Below are positions 8,723 to 41,712 of a stretch of DNA of 56,750 nt, in pieces. Each line of letters begins with the position of its first letter. Within the stretch, counting starts at the first letter, position 1. A model generated the notes under the pieces. It saw only the letters and a list, made by a program, of their open reading frames with translations, ran no database searches and was not told where the DNA came from. The stretch is from a virus. The position numbers and the translations under genes were made by a program. Where the stretch lies: the IMG/VR virus record IMGVR_UViG_3300009100_000003, positions 1 to 56,750 of that record. One strand, 5' to 3'.

Positions 8723-8747
8723 CCGGCTCCGGCTAAGGGGCTATACA
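8719..8747 (+). promoter_or_regulatory. Sigma70-type promoter (CTGACC-N17-TATACA). It is a member of the GCTAAGnnGCTATACA promoter family.
   Basis: It shares the string GCTAAGGGGCTATACA with the three leftward promoters at 33.7, 34.8 and 37.7 kb. It lies in the 101-nt gap before the gene at 8824. Confidence 0.5.
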
Positions 8748-8770
8748 GGCCCCGCGCGACGCGCTACGAT

Positions 8771-25622: not shown

Positions 25623-26000
25623 GTGCCGTACATGGTCGATGCGACCCGCGTCCCGATCGACTTCAAGGCGCTCGACTCCGCCCACGTCGACGAGTGCGCG
25701 ACGCGGACGCGCTGCGGGATCTGCGGTGCTCGGATCCGGCGTGGACCGATCGCGTTCATCGGGCCGGCGGATGGTCGGACGTGCTTCGCCGATCCGTGGA
25801 TGCATCCCGAGTGCGCGACGCTGGCGCTCGAGCAGTGTCCGTTCCTCGCGGGCCGGCGCAACTGGCGCGAGGAGGAGGCGCGGACCGACGCGCTGCTCGC
25901 ACCGTACGATCGGATGGTCCGCATCCTCGCCGACAACTGGCGTTCGCACCGAGACGGGTTCGGGCGCTGGCACTTCGAGGCCATCGGCCAGATGCGATGA
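25623..26000 (+). CDS. Cys-rich hypothetical protein between TerS and TerL (125 aa)
   Basis: It contains CGICG...C...HPEC...C. ATGA overlap with the TerL start. Confidence 0.55.
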   Translation: MPYMVDATRVPIDFKALDSAHVDECATRTRCGICGARIRRGPIAFIGPADGRTCFADPWMHPECATLALEQCPFLAGRRNWREEEARTDALLAPYDRMVRILADNWRSHRDGFGRWHFEAIGQMR

Positions 26001-27442
26001 GCGCCGACCCGCTCGCCCTCGCCGCCGATCTCCTCGAGTCCGGGATCATCACCCGGCCGCGGGACTGGCATCCGCGCCATCACCAGGTGCCGCCTCCGGG
26101 CGACTGGGACACGTGGGCGCTCATCGGGGGCCGGGGCTGCGGCAAGACGGACGGCGGAGCGGCCTACGTCAAAGCGCACGTCGCGGGACCGGCGTGCCTC
26201 GCCGGCGCTCAGCCTCACCGGATCTCGATCATCGCCCCGACCCTCGGCGACGCGGTTGACGCGTGCGTCACGGGACCGTCGGGGATCAAGGCCCACGATC
26301 CCTCCGCGCGGATGGTCCAGGCGATCGGCGGGACGTACGTCCGGTGGCCGAACGGCTCGGAGGCCAAACTGTTCGGGGCGTTCACGCCCGAGGACGTCGA
26401 GCGATTCCGAGCAGGCGGTAACCGCTGCCTCGCATGGCTCGAGGAGTTCGCCGCGTGGCGGCTCATCGCCGAGGTCCTCGAGCAGATTGACTACGGTCTC
26501 CGACTGGGCCCGAAGCCGCGCAAGATCGTGACCTCGACCCCGAAGCCAAAGAAGGCGCTGCGGGCCCTGCTCGCCGACGAGGGGACGGTCCGGACCTTCA
26601 CGGAGGACGGCCGGATCCCGACGATGGATGACAACCCGGACCTGCCGCTCGCGGTGCGCGAGACGCTCATCCGCAAGTACGGCGGCACCCGCCTCGGCCG
26701 GCAGGAGCTCAAGGGCGAGATGCTCGAGGACACGCCGGGCGCCTACTGGTCGTGGGAGTCGATCGAGCGCAACCGCATCCCCGAGGGCGCGCCGCTGCCT
26801 GACTTCGGGCGGGTCGTCATCGCCGTCGATCCGGCGACGACGTCGACCGACGAGTCCGACGAGACCGGCATCATCTCGACCGCACGGGCGATCATCGAAG
26901 CGCATCCGATCCTGCGGCCCGAGATCGCGAACATGGACGTCATCCACCCCGACCGACCGCACGCCCATTACTACGTCCTCGACGACGCCTCGCTGCGCGG
27001 CAGCCCGCACGCCTGGTCAACCGAGGCGGTCCGGTTGTACGACCGCCGCTCCGGCGACGTGATCATCGGCGAGCAGAACAATGGCGGCGATATGGTCGAG
27101 TCCACCGTCCGGACCGTCCGGGCGAACCTGCCGTATCGCAAGGTGGTCGCGAGTCGCGGGAAGGACGTTCGGGCGGAGCCGATCTCGGGCCTGTACGAGC
27201 AGGATCTCGTCCATCACGTCGGCATCCTGCCCGAGCTCGAGGATCAGATGACCTCGTTCACCGGTCCCGGCTCGATCGAGCATGACGACCGGCTCGACGC
27301 CGCGGTCTACGGACTGACCGAGCTCAGCGCCTCCGGGGTTGCGGTCATGGCCGGGACAGTCCAACATGGGCGCGCCACTTCCCGGACGAGGACGACGCGT
27401 GCCTACACGAACCCGCGGGGCGAGGAGCCGGTCCGACACTGA
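25997..27442 (+). CDS. terL: Terminase large subunit
   Basis: Walker A is LIGGRGCGKT and the Walker B-like motif is CLAWLEEF. The nuclease half has VIAVDPATTS...DETGII and ...HDDRLDAAVYGL. ATG 25997 overlaps the upstream stop. Confidence 0.9.
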   Translation: MSADPLALAADLLESGIITRPRDWHPRHHQVPPPGDWDTWALIGGRGCGKTDGGAAYVKAHVAGPACLAGAQPHRISIIAPTLGDAVDACVTGPSGIKAHDPSARMVQAIGGTYVRWPNGSEAKLFGAFTPEDVERFRAGGNRCLAWLEEFAAWRLIAEVLEQIDYGLRLGPKPRKIVTSTPKPKKALRALLADEGTVRTFTEDGRIPTMDDNPDLPLAVRETLIRKYGGTRLGRQELKGEMLEDTPGAYWSWESIERNRIPEGAPLPDFGRVVIAVDPATTSTDESDETGIISTARAIIEAHPILRPEIANMDVIHPDRPHAHYYVLDDASLRGSPHAWSTEAVRLYDRRSGDVIIGEQNNGGDMVESTVRTVRANLPYRKVVASRGKDVRAEPISGLYEQDLVHHVGILPELEDQMTSFTGPGSIEHDDRLDAAVYGLTELSASGVAVMAGTVQHGRATSRTRTTRAYTNPRGEEPVRH

Positions 27443-27488
27443 CCCGACCGGCCACGAGGCACCGGCGACCTCGGCGCACTCGGTCAAG

Positions 27489-29015
27489 ATGCTCTCGTAC
27501 GTCCTCAAGGCCGAGGTCCCTGCCTCGCGCCAGATCCGGGACCCGTTCGAGGAGATCGCCGCCTACGCCGGCGGGCTGGCGATCGAGCCGCCTCTGGATC
27601 CGGAACGGCTGCTCATGCTCGCCGACGAGTCCGCTCCTCATGGTGCGTGTCTCGACGCGGTCGCCGATGACACCGTCGGCCGGGGCTGGACGCTCGAGCC
27701 CTCCCGTCAGACGCCGGGCACCGAGACGTCGGACGAGTCGGCCGCGACACCGTCAGGAACGGCAGACGAGAACATCGACGACACGAAACTCGCGGATGCG
27801 GTCGCGCAGCTGGACGAGGCGCTCGAGGCGATCACGCCCGACTACACGTTCGCCGAGCTCCTGTGGCAGGCCGAGTGGGAGCGCCGGGCGATCGGCTGGT
27901 CCGCTTGGGAGATGGTCAACGATCCCGGGGGCAAGCTCGGCGCGATCTACCCGGTCCCGGGGCAGACGCTCCGCTGCACGCCGGATCCGGACGTGTTCGT
28001 CCAGTGGCGCGGCGGCAAGGTCGTCTACTTCGCCCGGTTCGGCTCGGGCAAGCGGATCGACGCGCTCTCCGGCAAGGGCATCGATGGCAACGATGCCGGC
28101 CAGCGGCGCACCCGAAACGATCCGAAGGTCGAGAACCTCGCGACCGAGGTCCTCGTGTTCCGCGGCTACTCGTCGCGCTCGAAGTGGTATCCGATCCCGC
28201 GATGGGCGCCGGCCATCCCCGCGATCGCCGAGCTCACCGCGATCCGCGAATACAACGTCACCTGGTACGGCTCCGGCGGCGTCGTCGATCGGGTCATCCA
28301 TGCTCGTGCCGGCGACGGGCCCGCAGCGCAGAAGCTCGCCGACGACATCCTCGCGCAGCTGAACGAGGCGTCCGCGAACGGCGACGGGCACGTGACCATC
28401 GTCACCGGTGGCGATGAGAAGTCCGCGGTCGAAGCCGTGTTCCTCGCCCCGACCGTCGGCCGGCGTGATGGGCAGTTCGGCAACCGTCGGTCGGACCTCC
28501 TCGAGGAGGTCCTCATGGCGCACAAGGTCCCCGGCTACCGAATCGCCCGTGCCATCGTCGGCTCGCTCGGCGGAGCTCCGACCCGAGAGATGCTCCACTC
28601 GTACCGGACGGGCACGGTGGAGACCGATCAGAACCTCCTCGAGCATCGACTCAACGCGACCCTGTTCGGGCCGAAGGCGATCAAGCTCTCGGGCTATCGG
28701 TGGGTGCTCGTGGATCTCGACTGGGACGAGACCGAGCTCGACCTCAAGATCGCCTCGACCGCAGTCGAGCAGGGCATCGCGCAGCCGGCCGAGGGCCGCA
28801 CGATCCTCGGGCTGTCGCAGTCCGACGACCCGGCGCTCAAGGGGTTCTATTACAAGGGGCAGCCCCTCGGGCAGCCGCGGCCGGCCGCCCAGGCGACGCC
28901 CTTCGGAGCGGCGACCCGCGAGACCGCGCTGCTCAACGAGCTTCGGGTCGAGGTCCGCCGCCGGCTCGCCTCGCGGAGCAACGGGCACTCGACCGACCCT
29001 CTCCCCGTCGGCTAA
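27489..29015 (+). CDS. Portal protein
   Basis: It follows TerL. IEPPLDPERLLMLADESAPHGACLDAVADDTVGRGWTLEP resembles the N-terminal region of PBSX/HK97-type portals. The size is 508 aa. Confidence 0.85.
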   Translation: MLSYVLKAEVPASRQIRDPFEEIAAYAGGLAIEPPLDPERLLMLADESAPHGACLDAVADDTVGRGWTLEPSRQTPGTETSDESAATPSGTADENIDDTKLADAVAQLDEALEAITPDYTFAELLWQAEWERRAIGWSAWEMVNDPGGKLGAIYPVPGQTLRCTPDPDVFVQWRGGKVVYFARFGSGKRIDALSGKGIDGNDAGQRRTRNDPKVENLATEVLVFRGYSSRSKWYPIPRWAPAIPAIAELTAIREYNVTWYGSGGVVDRVIHARAGDGPAAQKLADDILAQLNEASANGDGHVTIVTGGDEKSAVEAVFLAPTVGRRDGQFGNRRSDLLEEVLMAHKVPGYRIARAIVGSLGGAPTREMLHSYRTGTVETDQNLLEHRLNATLFGPKAIKLSGYRWVLVDLDWDETELDLKIASTAVEQGIAQPAEGRTILGLSQSDDPALKGFYYKGQPLGQPRPAAQATPFGAATRETALLNELRVEVRRRLASRSNGHSTDPLPVG

Positions 29016-30587
29016 GTGGTCCGCACGGCCGCGCGCCGGCGTCCGCGGCCGGTCGCATACGCAGAGCCCGATCCCCTCTACGGACTCCTCGACGAGGACC
29101 TCGAGCTCCTCGACGCCGCGATCGAGGCCATCCTCAAGGCGCGCGCCCCGAAGCCTCCGGCCGGGACCGCAGAGCGATGGGAGCGCCCGATTCGCCGCGA
29201 GCTCCGCCGGCTCTCGGAGGACGTCGGCGACGCGATCGACGCGCTCGAAGTTCGGCGGTCGTGGTGGGTTCGCAAGGCCGACCCGTCGGACTTCTCGGTC
29301 AAGCCGGCAGTGTGGTCGCGATTCGAGCGCGAGCTCGGCGACGTGCTCGAGGAGATGTACGGCGCCGTCGGCGAGGCAGGATTCGCCGCGGTCGCGGGCG
29401 AACTGGGCATCGCTCTCGACTACGGCATCCGTCAGGAGATCGCCGACCCTGTCCTCGACGAGGTCGGCCGGCGGGTGACGATGATCTCCGACGCCTCGCG
29501 GAACGAGCTCGCGGATGCGGTCGGGACGGCGACGTCGCGCGGCTACTCGGTCGAGCAACTCGTCCGCGGCGTCGCCGGCGATGGGTTCTCGGGTCTCCGG
29601 CCGATGGTCGATCGCTGGCAGGCCATCGCCCCGGTCTCGACGTCGATCGATCGGGCGACGCTCATCGCCCGGACCGAGACCGCGAACGCGTACAACCTCG
29701 CGACGATGGACGCGTACCGGGCCTCGAACCTGGTCGCCGAGGTCAACGTGTTCGATGGCGGCAACTGCGGCTGGACGACGCACACCGATCCCGACCTCGC
29801 GAACGGATCCCGCCGGACACTCGACGAGGCACGGGCGCACCCGACAGCGCATCCCTCGTGCCAGAGGGCATTCGGGGCGATCGTTCGCGGGGCGCCGCCT
29901 CCGGGCTCGCCCTACGCGCAGCGAGTCACCCCGCCTCAGGTCGGGCCACGACCGACTGCGGATGCGCTCGAGCTCCGGGCGCGCGCGATCCAGGCGCGGG
30001 CGTTCTCATCGGCGGAGGCTGCCGAGAAGGCGGTCACGTCGACCCTGCGCGACCTCGAGACCCGGACCGGGGGAACCCTCGCGGGCCTGAACTTCCGGCT
30101 CAAGATCGACGGCGAGCGGACGGTCGAGAAGGTCCTCGGCGACGTCGCAGCTGGTGACCCGATCGAGCGCGCTAGGCAGGTCAAGGACGCGCTGCGGTAC
30201 ACGCTCATCTACCCGGAGGATCGGTTGTGGGCCGGCGCTCGCGCGGTCGAGGCGGAGCTCACCCGGCTCGGCTACTCGACGATCAAGTGGAAGCCGAACT
30301 GGACGAACCCGCTGTCGCGCGACCTCAACACCGCGTTCCGAGCTCCGAACGGGAGCCGGTTCGAACTGCAGTTCCACACCCCGACCTCGTTCGAGCGGAA
30401 GATGAACGGCGGGCCCGGCGGACAGCGCCCGTCGCACGAGATCTACACCGAGCTCCGGTCGCTGCCGCAGGATGCGGTGTCGGCTCGACGGTCACTCGAG
30501 GACGAGCTCCGAGCTCTGTGGGCCGACGTCCCGATCCCGGCCGGCGAACCGTACTTCGCCGAGATCGTCGAGGACCTACTGCCGTAG
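29016..30587 (+). CDS. MuF / SPP1 gp7-like head-morphogenesis protein with an extra ~190-aa C-terminal RelA/SpoT-like (toxSAS-like) domain
   Basis: MuF core: IARTETANAYNLATMDAY...VFDGGNCGW...HPSCQRAF. C-terminal domain from about nt 30000: RLKIDGERTVEKV, VKDALRYTLIYPED, SRFELQFHTPTSFERK and SHEIYTELR. Confidence 0.85.
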   Translation: MVRTAARRRPRPVAYAEPDPLYGLLDEDLELLDAAIEAILKARAPKPPAGTAERWERPIRRELRRLSEDVGDAIDALEVRRSWWVRKADPSDFSVKPAVWSRFERELGDVLEEMYGAVGEAGFAAVAGELGIALDYGIRQEIADPVLDEVGRRVTMISDASRNELADAVGTATSRGYSVEQLVRGVAGDGFSGLRPMVDRWQAIAPVSTSIDRATLIARTETANAYNLATMDAYRASNLVAEVNVFDGGNCGWTTHTDPDLANGSRRTLDEARAHPTAHPSCQRAFGAIVRGAPPPGSPYAQRVTPPQVGPRPTADALELRARAIQARAFSSAEAAEKAVTSTLRDLETRTGGTLAGLNFRLKIDGERTVEKVLGDVAAGDPIERARQVKDALRYTLIYPEDRLWAGARAVEAELTRLGYSTIKWKPNWTNPLSRDLNTAFRAPNGSRFELQFHTPTSFERKMNGGPGGQRPSHEIYTELRSLPQDAVSARRSLEDELRALWADVPIPAGEPYFAEIVEDLLP

Positions 30588-30826: not shown

Positions 30827-31642
30827 TCAGGACTCCTGCCCGGCTGGCGCCGCCGAGCGCGCGTGCAGGATCGACGCCAACCGGAGCCGATAGCGTACCC
30901 CGTCGATGCGACGCCACGCGTCCCGGTTCGCCAGCGGGACCAGCACGCACGGACTCATGAGATACCAGCGCGGCAGCGCGAGGAGGACGACGATCGGCAT
31001 CGTCCAGGGCCGTCCGGTCAGGGCGCCCCACGCGAGGAGCGGGACCGCGATCCCGAGCCGGAGCACGAGCCACGACGGGGTGACCGGATCGAAGTCATGC
31101 AGGAACGCCGGGTAGGCGAGCCACGCCTGCGGAGCGATCGCGAACGAGATCCCGACGATCGCTGCAGTGGCACCGAGCCCGATCGCGAGCTTGCGCCACT
31201 CGCCCCGGAACGCGTGCCACAGGATCCCGATCCCGACCGAGGACTTCGAGATGAACGCGAACGCCCACGTGCCGGGGTAGCGAATGCCGTACCAGGCGGC
31301 GGCAGTGAGCGCGATGTTCACGTTCCCTGCGTTGATATCCGAGGCGACCGGGCTGAGCACGAACACGAGCGGCAGGAGCGGCCCGACGAGCGCGTACAGG
31401 GCGACGAGCTCGACCGCTCGAACGATTGCGACGAACGCCTCGAACGGGAGCCCGAGGAGCGGGCTGATCAGCTGCGCGAACGCTGGCGTGTAGACGTACG
31501 CCGCGCTCGAGCGGATGACGTACGGGTCATCGGGCACGACCGTCCAGTAGGCGATCGCGTCGACCGGCGATCCGCCTCCGAGCCACACGAGCCATACGGT
31601 GACGGCGAACGCGATCGCGAACGCCCGCGCGGCTAGGGCCAT
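30827..31642 (-). CDS. Polytopic membrane protein (about 8 TM), possibly a GT-C-type (DUF2029/GT87-like) glycosyltransferase
   Basis: 271 aa from ATG 31642, with hydrophobic helices throughout. AAYVYTPAFAQLISPLLGLPFEAF resembles the Y.Y(P/T)P..A...P motif of DUF2029 enzymes. The function is tentative. Confidence 0.7.
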   Translation of the reverse strand: MALAARAFAIAFAVTVWLVWLGGGSPVDAIAYWTVVPDDPYVIRSSAAYVYTPAFAQLISPLLGLPFEAFVAIVRAVELVALYALVGPLLPLVFVLSPVASDINAGNVNIALTAAAWYGIRYPGTWAFAFISKSSVGIGILWHAFRGEWRKLAIGLGATAAIVGISFAIAPQAWLAYPAFLHDFDPVTPSWLVLRLGIAVPLLAWGALTGRPWTMPIVVLLALPRWYLMSPCVLVPLANRDAWRRIDGVRYRLRLASILHARSAAPAGQES

Positions 31643-31747
31643 CGGACGATCTCGGGGCGGAACCACCAGCGCCAGTGACCGTTACGGTGGACCTCGTGCG
31701 CCACGCGAGCGGTGCAGCGGCGACCGGCGAACCGATCGCCGCAGCGG

Positions 31748-31855
31748 CTAGCCACAGGGGCCTCCGTTGATCGTCGCCACGAGCAGCGCGGCGGCGAGCA
31801 GCACGGCCGCGAGCCCGATCGACCCGATCCACACGAGATCGACGAGGTCGCTCAT
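31748..31855 (-). CDS. Small single-pass membrane protein (35 aa)
   Basis: The product is MSDLVDLVWIGSIGLAAVLLAAALLVATINGGPCG*. ATGA overlap with the upstream gene. It is below the ORF-track cutoff. Confidence 0.4.
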   Translation of the reverse strand: MSDLVDLVWIGSIGLAAVLLAAALLVATINGGPCG

Positions 31856-32157
31856 TCGTCCCCTCCCTTCGCGGTGATCTGCTGGACGAGCGGGTTTGAG
31901 ACGCCGGCCGCAGTCGCGATCGTCCGGAGCGGGATGTCGAGTGCCCGGGCTGCGCGGATCGCGTAGTCGCGCTCGGCCCGTCGGGCGTCGAGGGCTGCCT
32001 TTGCAGCCGCATACGCCTCGCCTCGAACCTGGACCCGGCGAAGCGCCGTGTCCGTGTCGAGGGTGGGCGCGAGATGACTCGGGTCCTGTCCGAGTCCCTG
32101 AACCTTGCGGGCCATCTCGGCGGGCCAGCCGGTCCACGGGTCACGCGTCGTCGTCAT
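31852..32157 (-). CDS. Helix-turn-helix protein (101 aa)
   Basis: ATG 32157. The C-terminal ARALDIPLRTIATAAGVSNPLVQQI is HTH-like. Confidence 0.6.
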   Translation of the reverse strand: MTTTRDPWTGWPAEMARKVQGLGQDPSHLAPTLDTDTALRRVQVRGEAYAAAKAALDARRAERDYAIRAARALDIPLRTIATAAGVSNPLVQQITAKGGDE

Positions 32158-32435
32158 CGTCCGTACTCCTCGGTGAGGACGCCCGGGGGCTGCCCGAGCG
32201 TCGTGCGGTTGAGCGCGTAGGCGCCATCGGAGAGCCGGCGCGCGATGGGTGCGGGCCCGTACCCCCACGGGTCCCGGAAGTCGTCCGCGAGATGCTCGCC
32301 GCAGCGCGGCTCATCGGATGCGAGGTCGACCGCGATCGATGGCGAACCGCAGGTCTCGTGGTCGTACGAGTCGAACACCCGCCACGACCAGGTGTAGCGG
32401 CAGGCGCCGCCGGTGAGCTCCTCGAGGGGGATCAT
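32154..32435 (-). CDS. Hypothetical protein (93 aa)
   Basis: ATGA overlaps at both ends. The sequence begins MIPLEELTGGACRYTWSWRVFDSYDHETCG... Confidence 0.55.
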   Translation of the reverse strand: MIPLEELTGGACRYTWSWRVFDSYDHETCGSPSIAVDLASDEPRCGEHLADDFRDPWGYGPAPIARRLSDGAYALNRTTLGQPPGVLTEEYGR

Positions 32436-32707
32436 CGGTCGGCCTTGCCATCGGTCCCGACGAACCACGGGGTTTCGCGGTCGTCACTCTCGAAGTATTC
32501 GGGCGCGTCGGCCGTCCGCTCCCACAGGAACCCGTACCGGATCCCGCCCGTGTGCCAGCCGGTCGCGGGGTCGCGAGCCTCGTTGACCGCCCGCGTCGCC
32601 TCGTCGACGGACGGGAAGTACCCGAGCTCGCGCTCCCGATCGGCAGCCTCACCCTCGGAGTCGTGGTAGAGGACCGCCTCGTACACCGGGCGGTTGCGCC
32701 GCTTCAC
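32432..32707 (-). CDS. Hypothetical protein (91 aa)
   Basis: GTG 32707 overlaps the upstream stop (GTGA). The sequence begins VKRRNRPVYEAVLYHDSEGEAADRERELGYFPSVDEATRAV... Confidence 0.5.
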   Translation of the reverse strand: MKRRNRPVYEAVLYHDSEGEAADRERELGYFPSVDEATRAVNEARDPATGWHTGGIRYGFLWERTADAPEYFESDDRETPWFVGTDGKADR

Positions 32708-33015
32708 GGCGTCCACCGTGGGTAGAGGCAGAGCGCGTAGCCGGCCCACGGCTCGGCGTACACGCCAGCTGCGCGACCGACCGCGTCCGTGTTGATCGCG
32801 ACCGCCCAGTCGGAGAACATCGACGACTCGAGGAGGATCGTCGGTGTCGGGACGCCGGGCCACGTCCACGCCATGTTGAGCTCGGGCCCGTCGCCGTGGT
32901 AGGCGGCATCCGGTCCGGTCGGGACCTTCGCCCCGGTCCGATACACGCGCCGGATCTCGAGCGCGACTGCGGCGAGGGCCTTGTCGGCCTGGGCCTTTGT
33001 GACCTTCCGGGCCAT
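32704..33015 (-). CDS. Hypothetical protein (103 aa)
   Basis: ATG 33015 follows GGGAGGCAGCTGAG. The composition is protein-like. Confidence 0.6.
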   Translation of the reverse strand: MARKVTKAQADKALAAVALEIRRVYRTGAKVPTGPDAAYHGDGPELNMAWTWPGVPTPTILLESSMFSDWAVAINTDAVGRAAGVYAEPWAGYALCLYPRWTP

Positions 33016-33016
33016 C

Positions 33017-33631
33017 TCAGCTGCCTCCCTTCACGCCGTAGGGGAGATGGTCATTGACGAACACGTAGCTCGCGAGGAAGTGGACGAGCAGCGCCCGCGG
33101 ATGCGTCCGCGAGAAACTGAACGCCGGATCTGAGCCGCGCGACCCGAGCGTCCCGGACGAGTCGCCGAGGGTCGCCGTCCCGTCGGGGTTCAGCCACGAG
33201 GAGACCGAGTAGCCGAGGTCGATCATCCCGTCGAACCGGCGACCCGAGAAGCCCGCGAGGGCGTCCTTCACGTCGCGGCTCCGAGGAGCGCCGGCCTTGA
33301 GGACCGGAGCCCACCGACCGTCCCGGTGATCGACGTCCGCGTAGTTCGTGACGACAGGCCCGTAGGGCTTGTCATCGGAGTCGACCCGGGTCCAGGCGTT
33401 CGTGACCGTCCCGTCGTACCACACGTTGACCGACGCGCCGCCGGAGTACGAGTCCGACCGGACGTAGAACTTCGTGCCGGGGAACCGCGCTGCGAGGGTG
33501 GACCGGACGAGCGCGGCGGTGTCCGCCCATCCGACGTAATAGATCGGCGACCCGGCCCGATCACTCGGGGTCGAGGCCGCGACCTTCGCATAGACCGGAT
33601 GGTCTCGCGAAGGGGCCGAAGTGAGGGTCAT
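33017..33631 (-). CDS. LPD29-like protein, a type found on plasmids and ICEs (204 aa)
   Basis: LVRSTLAARFPGTKFYVRSDSYSGGASVNVWYDGTV resembles the hallmark '..FPg.KFsVrs..ysGG.Si.V.W.DGp' of large-polyvalent-protein-associated domain 29. It is the first gene behind the promoter at 33683-33710. Confidence 0.65.
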   Translation of the reverse strand: MTLTSAPSRDHPVYAKVAASTPSDRAGSPIYYVGWADTAALVRSTLAARFPGTKFYVRSDSYSGGASVNVWYDGTVTNAWTRVDSDDKPYGPVVTNYADVDHRDGRWAPVLKAGAPRSRDVKDALAGFSGRRFDGMIDLGYSVSSWLNPDGTATLGDSSGTLGSRGSDPAFSFSRTHPRALLVHFLASYVFVNDHLPYGVKGGS

Positions 33632-33637
33632 CCCTGA

Positions 33638-33652
33638 CCTCCGTACCTGCGG
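33638..33652 (-). promoter_or_regulatory. Leader motif CCGCAGGTACGGAGG (minus strand)
   Basis: 6 nt upstream of the start at 33631. Confidence 0.6.
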
Positions 33653-33682
33653 GGCCCGTCAGAGCGGCGGGCGCATCTAGAG

Positions 33683-33710
33683 TGTATAGCACCTTAGCAC
33701 CGGTCGTCAA
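33683..33710 (-). promoter_or_regulatory. Leftward promoter TTGACG-N16-TATACA with an extended -10 (TGC)
   Basis: The minus strand reads TTGACGACCGGTGCTAAGGTGCTATACA. It is near-identical to the elements at 34771-34798 and 37683-37710. Confidence 0.7.
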
Positions 33711-33724
33711 GTCGGCCGATGGTC

Positions 33725-34339
33725 CTACCGAGGGCAGACGAGGATCGAGGGAACGTGCTTGTGCGGCGTGTGATCGGCCGTCCGATGGTGGCACTTGTAG
33801 CAGACGTCCGGATCCCGGCGGCTCGCGTGAAACCAGGTGGCCGGCGGATGCTCGATGAGCTTGAGCCGGGCCTTGAGCCGGCCGATGTTGCCGCCGAGGT
33901 TCGAGAGTTCGTAGCCCGCGTGCGGGACCGCGATCGACCTCGCGTACGGGGTCAGTGCCGCGAGCTCGGCGCGGTGGGCCTTGCGGTAGGCGGCGTTCGC
34001 AGCTGCCATCGCGGCCCGCTTCGCCTCGAGCTCGGCGATCCGCTCCCGGAGCCGCTCGGCGGCGTCGGGATCGTCGGAGTAGATCGCCCGATCTGCGGCC
34101 GCTTCGATGCTCGCGGCTCGAGCCGCCATCGCGTCGGCCTTGTCCAGGCTGCGGAATGCCCGATCCTCGCGGGCGATCAGGCGGGCCCGCTCCGGGATAT
34201 GCCCGGGCTGCGTGTTGAACGCGTGGTCGTCGTGGTAGGGAGCGCCGAGCGCGAGGTCCGCATTCGCGCGGGCCACTCGCCGGCCGGCCCAGTCCCGGAG
34301 CCGTTCGGCTCGGGCAAGGCGCCGTTCGCGGTAGGTCAT
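33725..34339 (-). CDS. DUF3560-like protein (204 aa)
   Basis: The true start is MTYRERRLARAERLRDWAGRRVA... at 34339. Helical repeats are followed by a Cys/His C-terminus (CYKCHHRTADH). This N-terminal signature is typical of DUF3560 proteins of plasmids and actinophages. Confidence 0.65.
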   Translation of the reverse strand: MTYRERRLARAERLRDWAGRRVARANADLALGAPYHDDHAFNTQPGHIPERARLIAREDRAFRSLDKADAMAARAASIEAAADRAIYSDDPDAAERLRERIAELEAKRAAMAAANAAYRKAHRAELAALTPYARSIAVPHAGYELSNLGGNIGRLKARLKLIEHPPATWFHASRRDPDVCYKCHHRTADHTPHKHVPSILVCPR

Positions 34340-34728
34340 GCCGTGCCTCCTGTACCTGCGGTGAGCAGAGCGGGGACCGCGCTGCCGGGGCCGAGAGCGG
34401 CGGGTCGGACGTAGAACGTGACGCCCACGTCCACGCCGCAGAAGTAGGAATGGACGGCGAGGATCGTCCCCGCCGGGACGTCGACCGGGTCGGCCGCGCC
34501 GCGCGCCCAGGGGGACGGCACGACGAGCTTGCCGATGCGGCCGTTCGCGACGTCGACGAGGACGACATCGTCCTTCGTCCCGCCCGACCACGAGAGGTCG
34601 AGATGGAGAGGACGATCGCCCCACGCGACCGCGGAGAGCTTGCGCCCTCGGTAGTCCGGGAAGGTCGCGGCGAGGAGCCGCTTCACTCCGGGGTCCGAGC
34701 GGCGGAGCGGGCGAGAGAGAGGGGACAT
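34336..34728 (-). CDS. Hypothetical protein (130 aa)
   Basis: ATG 34728 lies 4 nt after the leader motif. ATGA overlap with the DUF3560-like gene. Confidence 0.6.
   Translation of the reverse strand: MSPLSRPLRRSDPGVKRLLAATFPDYRGRKLSAVAWGDRPLHLDLSWSGGTKDDVVLVDVANGRIGKLVVPSPWARGAADPVDVPAGTILAVHSYFCGVDVGVTFYVRPAALGPGSAVPALLTAGTGGTA
34346..34361 (-). promoter_or_regulatory. Leader motif CCGCAGGTACAGGAGG (minus strand), inside the upstream gene's 3' end
   Basis: 6 nt upstream of the start at 34339. Confidence 0.55.
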
Positions 34729-34732
34729 GGCG

Positions 34733-34748
34733 CCTCCGTTACCTGCGG
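34733..34748 (-). promoter_or_regulatory. Leader motif CCGCAGGTAACGGAGG (minus strand)
   Basis: 4 nt upstream of the start at 34728. Confidence 0.6.
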
Positions 34749-34770
34749 AGCCCGTGTCGGGCAACTAGAG

Positions 34771-34798
34771 TGTATAGCAGCTTAGCGGCCGACGTCAA
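34771..34798 (-). promoter_or_regulatory. Leftward promoter TTGACG-N16-TATACA with an extended -10
   Basis: The minus strand reads TTGACGTCGGCCGCTAAGCTGCTATACA. The transcript then forms the hairpin GCCCGacaCGGGC before the leader motif. Confidence 0.7.
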
Positions 34799-35266
34799 GC
34801 ACGAAGATCGCGCGACCAGCGGATCCGAGGCTCGTCGGGGAGGGCGCGATCGCCCCACAGGTTCGCGTCGTACCGAGGTCGGCCGGCGCTCGCCCACGAC
34901 GCGCGCGCCTGGAGGCGCTCCTCGAGGACGAACCCGGCGGCGCGGAGCGAGGCGCCTGACTCCGAGGCGAGGGTGTACGTGATCGCTCTCCGGTAGCCGA
35001 GCGCGGCGGCTGCCCGACAGATCGCCCCGTACAGGCGCGAGCTCGCGTTGCGCTGCTCGAGCGTGCAGACGCGGGTGATCTCGATCGTCGAGCGATCCGC
35101 AGCGAGGACGCGCGAGCCTGGTCGGCCGGCGACCGCGAACACCGACGAGCTCGCCGTCGAGTTCGAGCCCGACGCCGAATCGCCAGCCGCGTGGCGGGAG
35201 GTTGTGGCGATGGTGGGCCGCGACGAAAGCGCGGGCCTCGGCGAGGTCGATCGCGCGGAGGTTCAT
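34795..35266 (-). CDS. GNAT-like (XF1762-type) protein, split between two frames at about 35140-35146. The length of 472 nt is not a multiple of 3.
   Basis: Frame A gives MNLRAIDLAEARAFVAAHHRHNLPPRGWRFGVGLELDGELVG. Frame B gives VFAVAGRPGSRVLAADRSTIEITRVCTLEQRNASSRLYGAICRAAAALGYRRAITYTLASESGASLRAAGF... Joined, they read as one domain. Confidence 0.6.
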
Positions 35267-36589
35267 TCGTCCTCGACCGTCTCGAGGAGATCCAGCGCCC
35301 GGAGCCCGACGACGTAGGCAACCTTCGGCACGACCGCGTTGCCCAACTGCTGCAGGCGATGTTTCCGTCGGGTGACGCCCTTCGCGAGCCGGGGCACGCG
35401 AGGCGACGGATCGGGCGGCCACGGCTCGCCCTCGAGCCACTCCGGCGCGGCGACCTCGAGATCAGTCCAGCCGATCGGGAAGCCCATAAGCCACTCCACC
35501 CAATCGGGGCTCAGCGGGCCGGTCGCGTGCTCCGCCTCCTGAACGGTCGCGTCGAGGTAATGCTTGTCCACCCGGTACTCGTGGGACTTCGATCCGAGCG
35601 GGCCTGTCCCCTTCCACTCGGACGCTCGAGGGGTCGGCCAGATCGACGGCGGCGTCGCCAGCGCGGGCTGCGAGACCGCCTCCTCCGGGAACCGCTGCTC
35701 GACGACTGTCCGGAGGTTCTTGCCGTGCCGGACACGCGCGAGCTCGGGCCCCGCATCGCCGTCCCCGGCGCGAGGGGTCGGGTACGTCTGCGCCGCCCGG
35801 CCGAGCGGGCTCGAGTGACCGTCCGGTCCGGTGCCGTGCGGTGTCGGCCAGTTGCCGTACCGCGACTCGTTCACCTTCGCCTGCAGCCCGTCGGGCCGAC
35901 CGTGCGACGAGCGCGCCCCGCCATCGCCATCCGTGACGAGCGGTGTCGGCCACGTCCCCTTGCGGGCCATCGTCTCGAGGCTCGGCCGCTTCCGGCTCCG
36001 CGTGTTCGACCCGGTGCCGTTGCCCGACGAGCCGTAGGCAGCTGCGCTCGGCGTCGGGAAGGGCGCCCGATGGATCGGGTCAGGATCCTCCGGCTCGACG
36101 TCGCCGAACCCCGAGGACGAAGATCCGGTTGCGTAGGTGCGGAGCACCGACGTCGAGCGCGGCGAGTCGATCCCGTTCCGCGTCGTACCCGAGGGCGACC
36201 AGGTCCCCGAGAACGTCTCCGAGCCCGTATCGAAGAAGCCCCGGGACATTTTCCACGAGCACGAGTCGGGGTCGTAATGCAGCGATGACGTCTGCGAACG
36301 CCGGCCAGAGCCACCGCGGGTCCGCCTGGGCAAGTTGGCGTCCGGCGACGCTGACGGGCTGGCAGGGGAACCCGCCGGCAATGAGGTCGACCCGTTCGAG
36401 CTCGGCGAGGGGGAGGGTCCGGACGTCGCCGTAGCGGGTGACGTCGGGCCATCGATGCTCGAGGACCCGGACCGCTTCGGGGTCGTACTCGACCTGCCAG
36501 CGAGGCTGCCAGCCGGCGCGTTCGAGTCCGAGATCGATGCCGCCGATCCCGGCGAATAGCGAACCGTACGTCGGTGCGTCATCGCGCAT
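35263..36589 (-). CDS. dcm: C5-cytosine DNA methyltransferase, split between two frames at a C4/G4 run (36109-36112). The length of 1327 nt is not a multiple of 3.
   Basis: The N-terminal frame has motif I LFAGIGG, motif IV GGFPCQPVS, and also VLVENV and HLRNRIFVLG. The C-terminal frame has a repeated WPTP target-recognition region and motif X QLGNAVVP. ATGA overlap with the GNAT-like gene. Confidence 0.8.
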
Positions 36590-36812
36590 GGCCGGAGCCG
36601 AGCGCGCGCGGCGTGACGTCCTTCGCGTTCGGCGGTGCCACGAGGTAGTCCTCGAGGGCGCCGCCCGCACCGAGGTAGCCCGGCCATCGCGGGTCGCTCG
36701 GGTCCGGGATGGGCAGTTCGCACTTGCAGTCGGGGTCGCCACAGAAGCCCGTCCAGGGCCCGTCGCCTGTCTGATGGCCGTCGACCGGATGTCCGCACGT
36801 GCAACGGTTCAT
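36579..36812 (-). CDS. Cys-rich small protein (77 aa)
   Basis: ATG 36812 follows GAGAGGAGCGAGCTC. The sequence begins MNRCTCGHPVDGH...FCGDPDCKC. Confidence 0.55.
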   Translation of the reverse strand: MNRCTCGHPVDGHQTGDGPWTGFCGDPDCKCELPIPDPSDPRWPGYLGAGGALEDYLVAPPNAKDVTPRALGSGHAR

Positions 36813-36922
36813 GAGCTCGCTCCTCTCAGTAGCCGACGAATGTACGCGTCGGCGATCGCGCGGCAGAGCCGACAGCGGGTGACGGCGCCGCCCCCGTGGG
36901 CGGGGAGATCATGACGAGTCAT
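36809..36922 (-). CDS. Very small ORF (37 aa) linked by ATGA overlaps at both ends
   Basis: The product is MTRHDLPAHGGGAVTRCRLCRAIADAYIRRLLRGASS*. Only the coupling geometry supports it. Confidence 0.3.
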   Translation of the reverse strand: MTRHDLPAHGGGAVTRCRLCRAIADAYIRRLLRGASS

Positions 36923-37134
36923 GCCGCCACCGACCATCCGGCCGGAGCGGGCCCGTCCGGATCCGTCCGGCGAAGTTTCGCGAGAGCGGCGGGATCAGTG
37001 ATCGGCCGCAGGTCCCGAGGCCGGGACTTCCGGCCAGCGAGCGCCCGGTCGATCGCGTTGAGGTCAGAGCGCCGCAGCGGCGGCCGCGCGGGGCCGAGCT
37101 TGAGCGCGTGAGTCCGGATGATGATCAGGCCCAT
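36919..37134 (-). CDS. Hypothetical basic protein (71 aa)
   Basis: ATG 37134 lies 5 nt after GGAGG. G+C at third codon positions is high. Confidence 0.45.
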   Translation of the reverse strand: MGLIIIRTHALKLGPARPPLRRSDLNAIDRALAGRKSRPRDLRPITDPAALAKLRRTDPDGPAPAGWSVAA

Positions 37135-37370
37135 GTCAGCCTCCGTGGTGAGTGGTAGATCGCGAGCGCGGCGCTCGCGGCGGCGTCGGTCGAGTACCGG
37201 CCGACGAGGATGAAGTCGTCGCAGTCCGGAGCGCGGGCGACCGCGACGTAGTCCGCGCCATCGATGACGGTCATGCTGACCGCCGCTCGATCACCGGCGA
37301 GGAACCCGCGAACGCGGTCCGCGAGATCCGCCGGGAGGGGCGGAAGATCGGGAGCCGGGAGAGGGGCCAT
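37125..37370 (-). CDS. Hypothetical protein (81 aa)
   Basis: ATG 37370 lies 4 nt after GGAGGCGCT. Coding-looking sequence starts at MAPLPAPDLPP... Confidence 0.5.
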   Translation of the reverse strand: MAPLPAPDLPPLPADLADRVRGFLAGDRAAVSMTVIDGADYVAVARAPDCDDFILVGRYSTDAAASAALAIYHSPRRLTWA

Positions 37371-37381
37371 AGCGCCTCCGT

Positions 37382-37621
37382 TCAGTGATCGTGGCCGGGC
37401 AGCGCGCACCGCGGGCCCGGAACGAAGTCAGGGATGCCGGCGAGGACCGGCGAGTGGCGACCGCCACCGAGCCAACCGTCGGCGTGGTAGAGCCACCCGT
37501 GATCGTGAGTCGCAGCGCCGCCGTGGGGCGGCCAGCCGGTCCGCACGACGGGCACGCCGCACGCGTCACACGGCCCGAGGACCGGAACGCCTCGAGCGGC
37601 GAGTCGGTCGAGAAGCGTCAT
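37382..37621 (-). CDS. Cys/His-rich small protein (79 aa), first gene of the leftward block
   Basis: ATG 37621 lies 5 nt after the leader motif. The sequence contains CDACG...H.H...H...C..PGHDH. Confidence 0.6.
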   Translation of the reverse strand: MTLLDRLAARGVPVLGPCDACGVPVVRTGWPPHGGAATHDHGWLYHADGWLGGGRHSPVLAGIPDFVPGPRCALPGHDH

Positions 37622-37642: not shown

Positions 37643-37682
37643 AAGGGGCGGAGCCGAGGAGCGGGACCGCCTCCGTGGTAAG

Positions 37683-37710
37683 TGTATAGCACCTTAGCGC
37701 CGAGTGTCAA
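37683..37710 (-). promoter_or_regulatory. Leftward promoter TTGACA-N16-TATACA with an extended -10
   Basis: The minus strand reads TTGACACTCGGCGCTAAGGTGCTATACA. This is the best consensus match of the family. Confidence 0.7.
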
Positions 37711-37777
37711 GGTGCTCTGCAGCGATTCGAGGTAGTACCATCGCCGACGCCAGCGTGACGTTCGAGGAGTCGCCGAG

Positions 37778-39298
37778 ATGACGGTCGCGGTACAGGAGCC
37801 CGAGGCGGGCCTCGTCCGGCGGATCTTCCGCCAGGTCGTCCGCTCTCTCGTCGCGAAGCAGCGCAATGACACCGGCGTCATGGTCGCCCTGTTCCTGCCG
37901 CCCGACGTCGCGGCCGAGCTCGCGGTCCCCGGCGGCGAGCCGGCGAACGTCTTGCACTTGACGCTCCGCATCTTCGCCGACGATGCCGCGCAGGTCCCGA
38001 TCGAGAAGCTCGACAAGTGGGCCGCAGAGATCGAGCAGGTCGCGAAGCGGACGCCGGTCCTGTCGGGTCGGATCTCCGGAGTCGGGCGGTTCAACGGCGA
38101 CCAGGCTGGCGGCGAGGACGTCGTGTACGCGACGATCGACCTGCCCGGACTCGAGCAGCTGCGCGATCAGGTGCGATGGTGCGGCGACTACCGCGAGCTC
38201 GGGGAGTCCGACGAGCCGGAGCACGGGTTCAGCCCGCACGTCACGCTCGCGTACGGCAACGATGTCGAGCTCCCCGAAGTCCCGACCGTCCCGGTTCGGA
38301 TCGATCGCCTGAGCCTCGCGATCGGGAACGAGCGACGCGACTACATGTTCGCCGGCGCCGCGACTGCGCCGGTCGCGGTCACGCAGCACAAGGCCCAGTG
38401 GTCCGCGGCGTTCATCAACGATCTCCCCGACTCCTCGTTCCTCTACATCGAAGCCGGCGGCGAGAAGGACGGCGACGGGCGGACGACGCCGCGATCGCTG
38501 CGCCACTTCCCGGTCAAGGGCCCCGATGGCGCGGTCGACCTGCCGCACGTCCGGAACGCCCTCGCGCGGATCCCGCAGTCGAAACTGCCGGCCGACGTCC
38601 AGGCAGCTGCCGAGCGCAAGGCCCGCGCGATGCTCGAGGCCGCGACCGAGAAGGCATCGGTCGAGCGGTCCGAGGCGGTCGTCGCCACGCTCGGCGAGCT
38701 CGGGTGGGAGGGCAAGGTCGAGGTCGAGCCGGTCGGCGTGTCGGAGGACGGCTCCGCGTTGATCTGGAAGGCCGACCGCGAGGAGGGTCCGGGGCTCATC
38801 CTCGTCGATGACGGGGCCTCGATCCTCGAGCTCTCCGCGTGGGTCGAGCGCGCCTCGGTCCCTGCCCTCGAGCCGGTCGAGCAGTTCGCGGTGATCAAGT
38901 CCGAGGGTGACCTCCGCTACACCCTCGGCGTCGCGTATCCGGCCCGGCGGACGACGAAGGCGACCGACTCGAAGGACGTCGACGCGCACAAGGACTACAT
39001 GACGCCCGAGGAGCTCGAGAAGGCAGCGTGGGCGTACCTCCGCGACCGGACGACCGTCCGCGCCTCCGGAGGCTCGACCGGTGTCGGGACGATGCACGAG
39101 GACGGGACCGACGGCGCCGGCGACGTCGTCGAGTCGTATATCTACCGCGGCCCGACGTGGAAGGTCGCCGACCAGGTCGTCGAGGCCGGCGATTGGCTCC
39201 TCGGCGTCGTGTGGGACGAGCCGACGTGGGCGCGCATCCAGTCAGGCGACCTGACCGGATATTCGATGCAGGGCTACGCGGCACGCGAGCCCGGGTAA
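37778..39298 (+). CDS. Fusion protein with an N-terminal 2H phosphoesterase (LigT-like), a middle conserved phage domain and a C-terminal XkdF-like putative prohead protease domain
   Basis: Two HxTx motifs: HLTL (37955-37966) and HVTL (38237-38248), 94 residues apart and preceded by VMVALFLPP. The middle part is WSAAFINDLPDSSFLYIE...RHFPV...LPHVRNALARI. The C-terminus, YTLGVAYPA...EELEKAAWAYL...MHEDG...VVESYIY...W..GVVWDE..W..I..G.LTGYSMQG, is XkdF/S78_2-like. Confidence 0.8.
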   Translation: MTVAVQEPEAGLVRRIFRQVVRSLVAKQRNDTGVMVALFLPPDVAAELAVPGGEPANVLHLTLRIFADDAAQVPIEKLDKWAAEIEQVAKRTPVLSGRISGVGRFNGDQAGGEDVVYATIDLPGLEQLRDQVRWCGDYRELGESDEPEHGFSPHVTLAYGNDVELPEVPTVPVRIDRLSLAIGNERRDYMFAGAATAPVAVTQHKAQWSAAFINDLPDSSFLYIEAGGEKDGDGRTTPRSLRHFPVKGPDGAVDLPHVRNALARIPQSKLPADVQAAAERKARAMLEAATEKASVERSEAVVATLGELGWEGKVEVEPVGVSEDGSALIWKADREEGPGLILVDDGASILELSAWVERASVPALEPVEQFAVIKSEGDLRYTLGVAYPARRTTKATDSKDVDAHKDYMTPEELEKAAWAYLRDRTTVRASGGSTGVGTMHEDGTDGAGDVVESYIYRGPTWKVADQVVEAGDWLLGVVWDEPTWARIQSGDLTGYSMQGYAAREPG

Positions 39299-40713: not shown

Positions 40714-41712
40714 ATGACCGCGATCCTCCGTCAGTGGCTCGAGAAGGCCACCCTGACGACAGCCGACCTCGAAGGCGGCACGAACGGCGGGATGCTCTCG
40801 CCGGCGCAGGCCAAGCAGTTCATCCGCCAGGCGATCGAGGCGAGCGTCCTGCTCCCTGACGCCCGCAACGAGAGCTCGGACTCACCGAAGTTCGAGGTCC
40901 CGCGGATCAACCTCAACTCGCGCGTCCTGCGGCGCGGCGTCCAGGCGACCCGCCTCGACGATGCGGACCGCGTCAAGCCGGGCACCGGGCTCGTCGAGCT
41001 CGACACGCAGCTGTTCAAGGGCGAGATCCTCGTCGCCGACGAGTTCTTCGAGGACAACGTCGAGCGCGAGAGTGCCGCCGGCACGATCATGACCATGCTC
41101 GCCGAGGCGGTCGGTCGCGACGCCGAGGAGATCGCGATCAAGTCCGACACCGATCGGACCGGCGCCGACGACGAGACCCTCGACGCGTTCGACGGGATCA
41201 TCGCGACGCTGCAGGACGAGCTCCCGGCGAATCAGATCCTCGACGTGTCGGCCGAGACGACCGCCCAGGACATCTTCCGCCGGATGATCGAGGCGCTGCC
41301 GTCGCGGTACCGCCGAAACTACGGCGAGCTCCGGATCTACGTGCCGACGTTCCTGCGCGACACGTACCACGCCGAGCTCGGCGAGCGCCTCACGGTCCTC
41401 GGCGACTCCGCCGTCGTGGACAACCTCGCGACGCGGCTCGCCTACCGCGGCATCCCGATCGAGGAGCTCCCGCTCCTGTCGGGCGAGGACACGATCAACG
41501 GCGCATCGATCGACTACGCGACGTTCGCGTTCCTCACGCACCCCAAGAACATCATCGCGGGCTGGCATCGCCGGATCCGGATCGAGAAGTTCCGGGACCC
41601 GCGCGAGGGGGCGACCTCGTTCCTCCCGAGCCTGCGGTTCGACTGCAAGCTCGGCGAGCCCGAGCGCGCAGTCCTCGCGACGGGCGTGCCGTTCGAGGCA
41701 CCGGGCAGCTGA
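40714..41712 (+). CDS. Major capsid protein (HK97-fold type)
   Basis: 332 aa, downstream of the scaffold. Typical segments are LSPAQAKQFI..A...S.LL.....E......KF.VP....... and ..A.E.A........AL. A strong terminator follows. Confidence 0.85.
   Translation: MTAILRQWLEKATLTTADLEGGTNGGMLSPAQAKQFIRQAIEASVLLPDARNESSDSPKFEVPRINLNSRVLRRGVQATRLDDADRVKPGTGLVELDTQLFKGEILVADEFFEDNVERESAAGTIMTMLAEAVGRDAEEIAIKSDTDRTGADDETLDAFDGIIATLQDELPANQILDVSAETTAQDIFRRMIEALPSRYRRNYGELRIYVPTFLRDTYHAELGERLTVLGDSAVVDNLATRLAYRGIPIEELPLLSGEDTINGASIDYATFAFLTHPKNIIAGWHRRIRIEKFRDPREGATSFLPSLRFDCKLGEPERAVLATGVPFEAPGS

Follow-up and report, generated by a model that had tools for sequence, protein, structure and literature searches.

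For bacteriophage T4, IPI, IPII and IPIII, which are internal proteins, and the Alt protein have been described as separate polypeptides which carry a 10-residue targeting peptide for the prohead core, are released by the prohead protease gp21, are retained in the head and are ejected from it. IPI is an anti-restriction factor, and a beta-galactosidase fused to IPIII was shown to reach cells (PMC9026906). In the polyvalent proteins of phages, 2H phosphoesterase domains were found on MuF and portal proteins and never together with RNA ligases, and either an RNase activity or the degradation of defence nucleotide signals was proposed for them (Iyer et al. 2017; PMC5512222, section 20). In the same work, assemblin-like peptidases were reported to be always C-terminal in polyvalent proteins (PMC5512222, section 8). 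For MuF toxins, RelA-like ones included, a loading into the head with subsequent delivery has also been proposed (Jamet et al. 2017; PMC5576092). The present analysis deals with a gene at positions 37778-39298 (plus strand) of the IMG/VR virus record IMGVR_UViG_3300009100_000003, and the whole analysed stretch of 56,750 nucleotides is called the window. The 506-residue gene product joins a 2H phosphoesterase domain to a prohead-protease domain of the XkdF type. It is considered about an even chance (a probability near 0.5) that the protease carries a catalytically active 2H domain as a cargo, which would be loaded into the head and delivered.

The open reading frame (ORF) is a genuine gene, with a GC content at third codon positions of 0.92 that is typical for the real genes of the window. 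The identical protein is present on seven metagenome contigs, and its full-length relatives share 38-54% identity (BLASTP). An artificial fusion by a frameshift or an assembly error was ruled out, since a single ORF exists on the seven contigs and in many divergent relatives. In the N-terminal half, Pfam family 2_5_RNA_ligase2 (PF13563) was identified at residues 58-164 (E-value (E) 6.5e-10, 39.7 bits, cut-off 27), together with AKAP7_NLS (PF10469), a 2H family of the AKAP7 type (27.1 bits, cut-off 24.4). The C-terminal part, residues 398-503, belongs to Peptidase_S78_2 (XkdF) with 62.7 bits (E 4.4e-17, cut-off 24), the protein is matched by the head maturation protease family phrog_3017, and PHROGs give the same division into two domains as Pfam. 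The two-enzyme architecture and the identity of its domains are virtually certain. A first-pass annotation, made from the sequence alone, had named both domains, and both assignments were borne out; its positions for the ORF, for the motif VMVALFLPP (residues 34-42) and for the HLTL and HVTL motifs, with their spacing of 94 residues, are exact in the sequence, but two further modules (residues 208-307 and 314-360) had been missed.

A structural model of the protein was built by AlphaFold2 on 38 sequences, with a mean predicted local distance difference test score (pLDDT) of 82.8. It consists of four folded units, comprising residues 30-196, 208-307, 314-360 and 376-503, which are split by disordered linkers. 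For the 2H unit, the top 33 Foldseek matches in the PDB were all 2H enzymes. The best was the cyclic phosphodiesterase of Deinococcus radiodurans (5h7e; E 1.4e-7, target TM score 0.62), and the enzymes of Thermus thermophilus (1iuh; E 2.3e-7) and E. coli (LigT, 5ldm; E 2.7e-6) were identified with target-normalised TM scores of about 0.6; 1iuh was also found by a profile search of the PDB sequences (E 8.7e-8). Among the later Foldseek matches were the rotavirus VP3 2-5A phosphodiesterase, a Burkholderia phage phosphodiesterase (9q2y), the penguinpox cGAMP phosphodiesterase and Usb1 (E 5e-4). With the LigT/ThpR enzymes 1iuh, 5h7e and 5ldm, the domain shares two HxT motifs and a G-x-G-x-F loop at an identity of 20-24%. 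Differences exist after the second motif, where a tyrosine (HVTLAY) is present instead of the arginine of 1iuh (HITLAR), and in the context, since LigT enzymes are stand-alone cellular proteins. The NCBIfam LigT equivalog TIGR02258 gave only 17.8 bits against a cut-off of 65.7. The 2H domain is LigT-like in its fold, yet it is no LigT orthologue.

Acb1 is a phage-encoded nuclease of the T4 type with a 2H fold which degrades immune cyclic oligonucleotides, and a functional analogy to it had been proposed in the first-pass annotation. Acb1 is a small, free protein, and packaging is not known for it. A comparison of the N-terminal domain to both LigT and Acb1 had been suggested in the first-pass annotation, and the resemblance holds for the LigT/ThpR cyclic phosphodiesterases; the fold match to Acb1 (7t26) is far weaker, with an E-value of 1.1e-3 versus about 1e-7 for LigT-type enzymes. 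The Pfam model for Acb1, PF23474, did not match the 506-residue protein at E<=1, and its relatives reach 16.8-19.6 bits versus a cut-off of 27. Because the domain is closer to LigT/ThpR than to Acb1, a link to activity against CBASS, the antiphage signalling system based on cyclic oligonucleotides, can be drawn by analogy only.

When 11 full-length relatives were aligned, the residues H60, T62, H154 and T156 of the two HxT motifs and the loop G101-x-G103-x-F105-N106 proved to be invariant. Both histidines and the first threonine are invariant in 73 distant fusion proteins as well, and the second threonine is conserved there to at least 90%. From this invariance, the predicted 2H domain is very likely to be catalytically competent. 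The first-pass annotation had left open a role of the 2H fold as a structural or scaffolding module. Such a catalytically irrelevant module, for example a spacer, is most improbable, in view of motifs and a G-x-G-x-F loop which stay invariant or nearly so across divergent fusions that otherwise share nothing, and of the Arthrobacter phage Sonali, in which XkdF stands alone.

For the XkdF domain, D402, H440, E452, S453 and S496 are invariant in the 11 full-length relatives. In a modest profile-profile match to an S78 profile, which had been cleared of XkdF-containing proteins, H440 and S496 fall on a conserved histidine and a conserved serine, the presumed catalytic pair of S78 proteases such as HK97 gp4. 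A jackhmmer search from an S78 seed took in 66 XkdF proteins by the third iteration, which is a hint of homology between the two families. Fold neighbours of the XkdF domain were found only among predicted viral structures (BFVD); in the PDB, a Foldseek search with the full-length model identified none for the XkdF domain, nor for the middle module or the small beta domain. Sonali gp5, a stand-alone capsid maturation protease of 123 residues, is 49% identical to the C-terminal 130 residues and occupies the same position ahead of the capsid gene. Both Sonali gp5 and PBSX XkdF consist of the protease domain alone, whereas about 375 residues precede it in the 506-residue protein.

To collect the relatives of the 2H domain, residues 1-203 were compared exhaustively by HMMER to 1.84 billion cluster representatives (50% identity); this search was used instead of a word-index search with the N-terminal 203 residues that had returned two proteins. 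The 2H clade comprises 2,843 clusters at E<=1e-3, of which 1,336 were found at E<=1e-10. Among the best 150 clusters, 13 are solo-sized and 137 are multidomain proteins, with the 2H domain located N-terminally in 64, internally in 49 and C-terminally in 24 of the latter. An XkdF domain was identified downstream in 32 of the best 150 clusters, by hidden Markov models (HMMs) from the family of the 506-residue protein. Pfam assignments for 73 of the remaining clusters include the Mu-like prophage protease (13), the portal (14), Peptidase_S78 (3), the capsid protein (3) and MuF (2), and these fusions also carry polyvalent domains, namely InPase, ParB_N, ADP-ribosyltransferase, uracil-DNA glycosylase (UDG) and lethal-factor-like domains. 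Proteins composed of Peptidase_S78 and a 2H tail were found at 25 actinomycete loci, in 23 Streptomyces records and in Nonomuraea and Streptosporangium, with one genome per species scanned. The number of Streptomyces genomes with an S78-2H fusion is at least 20. The XkdF form is present in metagenome-assembled genomes (MAGs) of Chloroflexota and Actinomycetota, and 168 relatives were identified in IMG/VR. A 2H-protease architecture is not rare, and the survey of relatives for which the first-pass annotation had called found the 2H-XkdF order again both in these clusters and in cultured Arthrobacter phages.

One of the cultured examples is gp87 of Arthrobacter phage Ottawa (also gp87 of Kharcho), a protein of 379 residues with the same design, in which the 2H domain (61-222) is followed by XkdF (249-366). 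Its gene lies in the same slot, directly after the portal gene and gp85, and its 2H part is 32% identical to the one described here (tblastn); the middle module and the beta domain are absent. Ottawa gp87 is labelled 'RNA ligase', which hides the protease. Similarly, gp13 of Gordonia phage EMoore in the same slot is an 'RNA ligase' in GenBank and a 'head maturation protease' in RefSeq. Hundreds of actinophage 'RNA ligase' annotations are probably wrong.

Portal C-termini, N-terminal extensions of capsid proteins, MuF/gp7-type proteins and prohead proteases are all located inside the procapsid. On portal, capsid and protease partners, the orientation of the 2H domain is always compatible with a position in the capsid lumen: it is C-terminal to portals (P0123, P0133, P0162, P0187, L024 and L049), N-terminal to the capsid protein in P0126, and N-terminal to the Mu-type and XkdF proteases. 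Since one 2H clade has been joined to portals, a capsid protein, MuF and three families of prohead proteases, this repeated attachment is best explained by a selection for placement in the capsid lumen. In Herpetosiphon geysericola, a single ORF (L028:4570-7335) codes for a portal (80-400), a 2H domain (503-608) and a MuF domain (821-913).

In the window, the TerL gene is followed by those for the portal and the MuF-like protein, by a block of about 7 kb on the reverse strand, the 2H-XkdF gene, three small ORFs and the genes for the putative scaffold and the capsid. In the segment that runs from portal to capsid, none of the ORFs was assigned to another protease family. The assignment of the gene to the protease slot before scaffold and capsid in the first-pass annotation is confirmed by this order; the reverse block that separates it from the MuF gene had been overlooked. 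On contig L003, a relative is present in the same slot with the same reverse block, and on contigs L004 and L005 the order portal, MuF, small ORFs, 2H-XkdF, scaffold and capsid is uninterrupted. Three other phage lineages, as well as cultured phages, have the synteny from MuF to the capsid gene, with the small ORFs in between. Fusion partners and synteny together argue that the 506-residue protein probably enters the procapsid.

On the level of virions, information is available for the polyvalent 2H proteins, which belong to the same clade, occur in a head-module context and are predicted to be packaged and delivered (Iyer et al. 2017). For orf10 of Gordonia phage GMA2, a member of this group, 18 peptides were reported from purified virions (PMC4524720, Table S5). 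The protein (L006:5529-8180) consists of 883 residues, and its C-terminus (730-875) matches the 2H HMM with an E-value of 2.5e-16. One of the virion peptides, SEVGDYDAYTPHITAVTGQQAR (825-846), spans the second HxT motif, which shows that a 2H domain of this clade occurs in mature GMA2 virions. Upstream of the 2H domain, at about residues 560-700, motifs resembling R...S-x-S...E-x-E, namely FSRGSS, GFSGMSG and QVEREAILP, were noticed by eye; they suggest an ADP-ribosyltransferase domain, and if this is so, orf10 has a classic polyvalent architecture. As a second virion-proteome case, gp13 of Rhodococcus phage ReqiPepy6, a BFVD match, was considered and rejected, with 14 bits to the 2H HMM and a gene located before TerL.

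For the 506-residue protein, the following route can be proposed. The XkdF domain, a short relative of the HK97-type S78 serine proteases with His440 and Ser496 as candidate catalytic residues, would co-assemble in the procapsid with scaffold and capsid protein, and the covalent joining would place the N-terminal 2H phosphoesterase in the capsid lumen alongside the protease. Once fired, the protease would be expected to cut the two flexible linkers, of which residues 197-207 are the candidate site for proteolytic release of the cargo, so that the 2H enzyme would be set free as a folded protein of about 20 kDa. Being too big for the capsid pores, this enzyme would remain in the head together with the DNA, would enter the next host on ejection and would be active there ahead of all phage gene expression. 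In contrast to T4, in which the cargo proteins are separate from gp21, the cargo here is covalently joined to the protease. The chances that the 2H domain is retained in the head and ejected appear evenly balanced, on the basis of the T4 analogy and of one virion proteome for a related fusion without protease.

Several points weigh against delivery by the protease. The predicted TM score (pTM) of the AlphaFold2 model is 0.45, so that the relative placement of the domains is unreliable. The profile-profile match of XkdF to the cleaned S78 family has a probability of 57% (101 columns aligned, E 1e-4), and the proteolytic activity of XkdF is designated as 'putative' in Pfam. The nearest structural relatives of the 2H domain are housekeeping 2',3'-cyclic phosphodiesterases, and no known anti-defence enzyme is among them. 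The GMA2 carrier is not a protease, and SEVGDYDAYTPHITAVTGQQAR is the sole peptide inside its 2H domain. Moreover, the T4 prohead contains about 72 copies of its protease, of which about 3 are left once the head is mature (PMC9026906), and by analogy a passenger that is left uncleaved or is degraded would be lost with it.

This loss is also the starting point for a different explanation, in which the 2H domain acts late in the cytoplasm of the producing cell and is not delivered. The fusion would then secure coexpression with the capsid genes, the 2H domains inside the procapsid would be degraded or expelled, and the timing would match the triggering of signalling defences by capsid and portal proteins. 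The location of the gene inside the late structural operon and the exit of protease and scaffold fragments from the T4 head (PMC9026906) agree with it. However, coexpression requires an operon only and no fusion, and both the lumen-side fusions to portals, capsid N-termini and MuF and the 2H peptide in purified GMA2 virions are left without an explanation. Action in the late cytoplasm is regarded as rather improbable, and loading into the head and delivery by the protease remains the preferred reading.

With respect to the substrate of a delivered 2H domain, the two HxT motifs would hydrolyse phosphodiester bonds of the RNA type or 2',3'-cyclic phosphates. Cyclic or 2'-5'-linked oligonucleotides that are defence signals, or the products of such signals, would be the likeliest substrates, with RNA ends or host RNA as an alternative. 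A substrate among the immune signals is speculative and is put forward tentatively. The idea of the first-pass annotation, an enzyme that the capsid delivers and that degrades nucleotide signals, is plausible and repeats the hypothesis which had been published in 2017 for MuF and portal fusions; the locus extends and sharpens this hypothesis.

A delivered 2H domain might instead be an offensive enzyme, an RNase or a modifier of RNA ends similar to Usb1 or to toxin-type 2H enzymes, which would shut down the host by an attack on its RNA (tRNA, rRNA or mRNA 3' ends) at entry. This is one of the two options of Iyer et al. (2017), and the 2H domain holds the position of the PBECR RNase on MuF and portal proteins (PMC5512222); in addition, Usb1 is among the fold matches, and the neighbouring MuF protein has a toxin-like C-terminal domain. 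The LigT/ThpR cyclic phosphodiesterases nevertheless rank above Usb1 in fold and sequence, and an immunity gene adjoining the 2H-XkdF gene was not recognised. An attack on host RNA is quite unlikely.

Less probable still is a function in RNA repair, in which the domain would heal the 2',3'-cyclic phosphate ends that result from cleavage by anticodon nucleases or HEPN RNases. It would suit the LigT/ThpR 2',3'-cyclic phosphodiesterases as the closest enzymes and the 'RNA ligase' labels which were given by SEA-PHAGES to relatives in cultured phages. The early genes recognised in the window code for RecT, YqaJ, a DnaQ-like exonuclease, a HerA-like ATPase and a Pol-beta-like nucleotidyltransferase; an RNA ligase, a polynucleotide kinase or RtcB was not detected among the early genes, in agreement with the report that this 2H type is never tied to RNA ligases (PMC5512222). 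The score for TIGR02258 lies far below the LigT cut-off, and there is no obvious reason for fusing a repair enzyme to head proteins.

In a broader form, the fusion to a protease would be a general device for cargo loading which provides both targeting and release. Each head would receive many copies of an active phosphodiesterase for cyclic oligonucleotides or cyclic phosphates, and the 2H domain, ejected with the DNA, would disarm CBASS, the cyclic oligoadenylate (cOA) signalling of type III CRISPR systems and Thoeris- or Pycsar-like systems ahead of all phage transcription. In this view, the 2H cargo was joined independently to proteases of the XkdF, HK97 and Mu types, to portals, MuF and the N-termini of capsid proteins. 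The generalisation is regarded as doubtful. If it is true, the 2H domain would be among the most widespread counter-defence enzymes delivered by virions. The known enzymatic degraders of phage-defence nucleotide signals, like Acb1, Apyc1 and the viral ring nucleases, are regarded as products of the time after the start of infection. If a phosphodiesterase is brought along in the capsid, its action would begin at time zero, and the view of the timing in signalling immunity would change. The architecture also suggests that prohead proteases may serve as carriers for the loading of foreign proteins into capsids. Arthrobacter phage Ottawa gp87, the Gordonia phages GMA2 and EMoore and the Streptomyces prophages provide cultured test cases.

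Compared to the polyvalent proteins described so far, the 506-residue protein has several domains, a locus in the head module and a C-terminal S78-like peptidase, which obeys the rule of PMC5512222 for the position of such peptidases. It differs from the MuF and portal polyvalent proteins in that its carrier is the prohead protease, in that only two of its domains are enzymatic and in that it lacks a large polyvalent protein associated domain (LPD). The locus is a minimal, protease-carried member of the known polyvalent class. New in this analysis are the breadth of the protease fusions over three families, the rule for the orientation, the connection with the proteome of GMA2 and the cultured test cases. 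For the 2H-XkdF fusion, a literature search yielded no paper discussing it, and the one jumbo-phage review that was retrieved is silent on the fusion; searches for LigT in combination with a capsid maturation protease and for the phosphodiesterase of phage BCSR5 (PDB 9q2y) found nothing.

Between the 2H domain and the protease, a middle module is located which has the consensus W..A.INDLPDS.FLYIE.GG.KD..G.T.PRSLRHFP....G.VDLPH.RNALARIPQS. With its alternative residues, the consensus reads W-S/T-x-A-F/Y-I/V-N-D-L-P-D-S-x-F-L-Y-I-E-x-G-G-x-K-D-..-G-K-T-T-P-R-S-L-R-H-F-P-..-V-D-L-P-H-L-R-N-A-L-A-R-I-P-Q-S. The module comprises 80-100 residues and occurs, at an identity of 60-85%, in more than 100 head-protease and capsid proteins that are otherwise unrelated, where it is found on the N- or the C-terminal side of S78, Mu-like, DUF2213 and XkdF proteases, sometimes in duplicate, and also next to ChaB and at the N-terminus of one capsid fusion. 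Pfam has no family for this module, with only a weak match to DUF6582 (E 0.047). Because the conservation is so strong across different head systems, the module might bind something universal. The positions of all features are listed in Table 1.

Table 1. Features of the 2H-XkdF gene and of its surroundings in the window.
Feature	Position	Strand	Basis or remark
Shine-Dalgarno sequence GAGGAG	37764..37769	+	read from sequence; 8 nt before ATG at 37778
Whole gene, multi-module head protein: 2H, conserved module, small beta domain, XkdF protease	37778..39298	+	
N-terminal leader, residues 1-28, predicted disordered/helical	37778..37861	+	pLDDT <50; kept only in close relatives
2H phosphoesterase domain, residues 30-196, LigT-like fold	37865..38365	+	pLDDT ~90-96
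First catalytic motif H60-L-T62-L (HLTL, residues 60-63)	37955..37966	+	
Second catalytic motif H154-V-T156-L (HVTL, residues 154-157)	38237..38248	+	
Flexible linker, residues 197-207	38366..38398	+	pLDDT <50 at 197-206; length differs among relatives
Conserved module then long helix, residues 208-307	38399..38698	+	pLDDT >90
Small beta-rich domain, residues 314-360	38717..38857	+	strands 314-351, pLDDT 85-95; in close relatives only
Second flexible linker, residues 361-375	38858..38902	+	pLDDT <50
XkdF / Peptidase_S78_2 prohead-protease domain, residues 376-503	38903..39286	+	
Candidate catalytic H440	39095-39097	+	
Candidate catalytic S496	39263-39265	+	
TerL	25694-27442		
Portal protein	27339..29015	+	Pfam Phage_portal, phrog_12
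MuF-like head protein	29016..30587	+	phrog_2468, phrog_7625
Effector-like C-terminal domain of MuF-like protein, residues 332-511	30009-30548	+	PDB 8vx3, E 4.8e-12
Putative scaffolding protein, 193 residues	40076..40657	+	position only
Major capsid protein	40714..41712	+	phrog_1623, E 5.7e-66
GCTAAGGTGCTATACAC copy	8732-8748	+	
GCTAAGGTGCTATACAC copy	33682-33698	-	
GCTAAGGTGCTATACAC copy	34770-34786	-	
GCTAAGGTGCTATACAC copy	37682-37698	-	

The putative scaffold ORF obtained no family assignment in the Pfam and PHROGs scans; an ORF of about 200-225 residues likewise precedes a capsid-sized ORF in L003, L004 and L005. For the MuF-like protein, the effector that had been postulated in the first-pass annotation is real in outline. 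The C-terminal domain matches PDB 8vx3, which was named 'SaSAS' by its depositors, and MuF-type minor head or head morphogenesis proteins from prophages of Streptococcus pneumoniae. It is suspected to be a RelA/SpoT-like small alarmone synthetase toxin, of the kind reported for MuF toxins (Jamet et al. 2017), and Pfam RelA_SpoT was not called in the MuF-like protein.

The reverse-strand block (30827-37621, minus strand) codes for a GT87-like membrane protein, a solo LPD29 protein, a DUF3560 protein and a C5-methyltransferase, LPD29 standing for 'large polyvalent protein associated domain 29'. On the contig of the closest relative (L003:1956-9681), this insertion is found again, LPD29 and GT87 included. 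The window contains four copies of a 17-bp element, GCTAAGGTGCTATACAC, with 0-2 mismatches, compared to 0.01 expected by chance. One of the copies (37681-37710, minus strand) has a promoter-like sequence, TTGACA-18-TACACT, which points away from the 2H-XkdF gene, and the elements are probably promoters of the reverse-strand block. The C5-cytosine methyltransferase (35263-36804, minus strand) seems to be divided over two reading frames. The ORF at 36080-36742 (minus strand) matches just positions 5-163 of the 324 positions of Pfam DNA_methylase, and an overlapping ORF in another frame (35263-36804, minus strand) ends with ...QQLGNAVVP and contains five W/Y/F-P-T-P repeats, which resemble target-recognition units. 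The split could be due to a frameshift or to an error in sequencing, or the enzyme could be multispecific.

Tail-fibre-like genes are present at both ends of the window (111-5747 and 53494-56678, both plus strand), the first of which encodes 1,878 residues, and a protein identical to one of the window is also found on a contig of 56,769 bp. The window probably represents a phage genome that is complete and circularly permuted. Among the full-length relatives in a 'genome', the closest was identified on a MAG contig of Candidatus Limnocylindrales (Chloroflexota), and for this reason the host may belong to the Chloroflexota rather than to the Actinomycetota.

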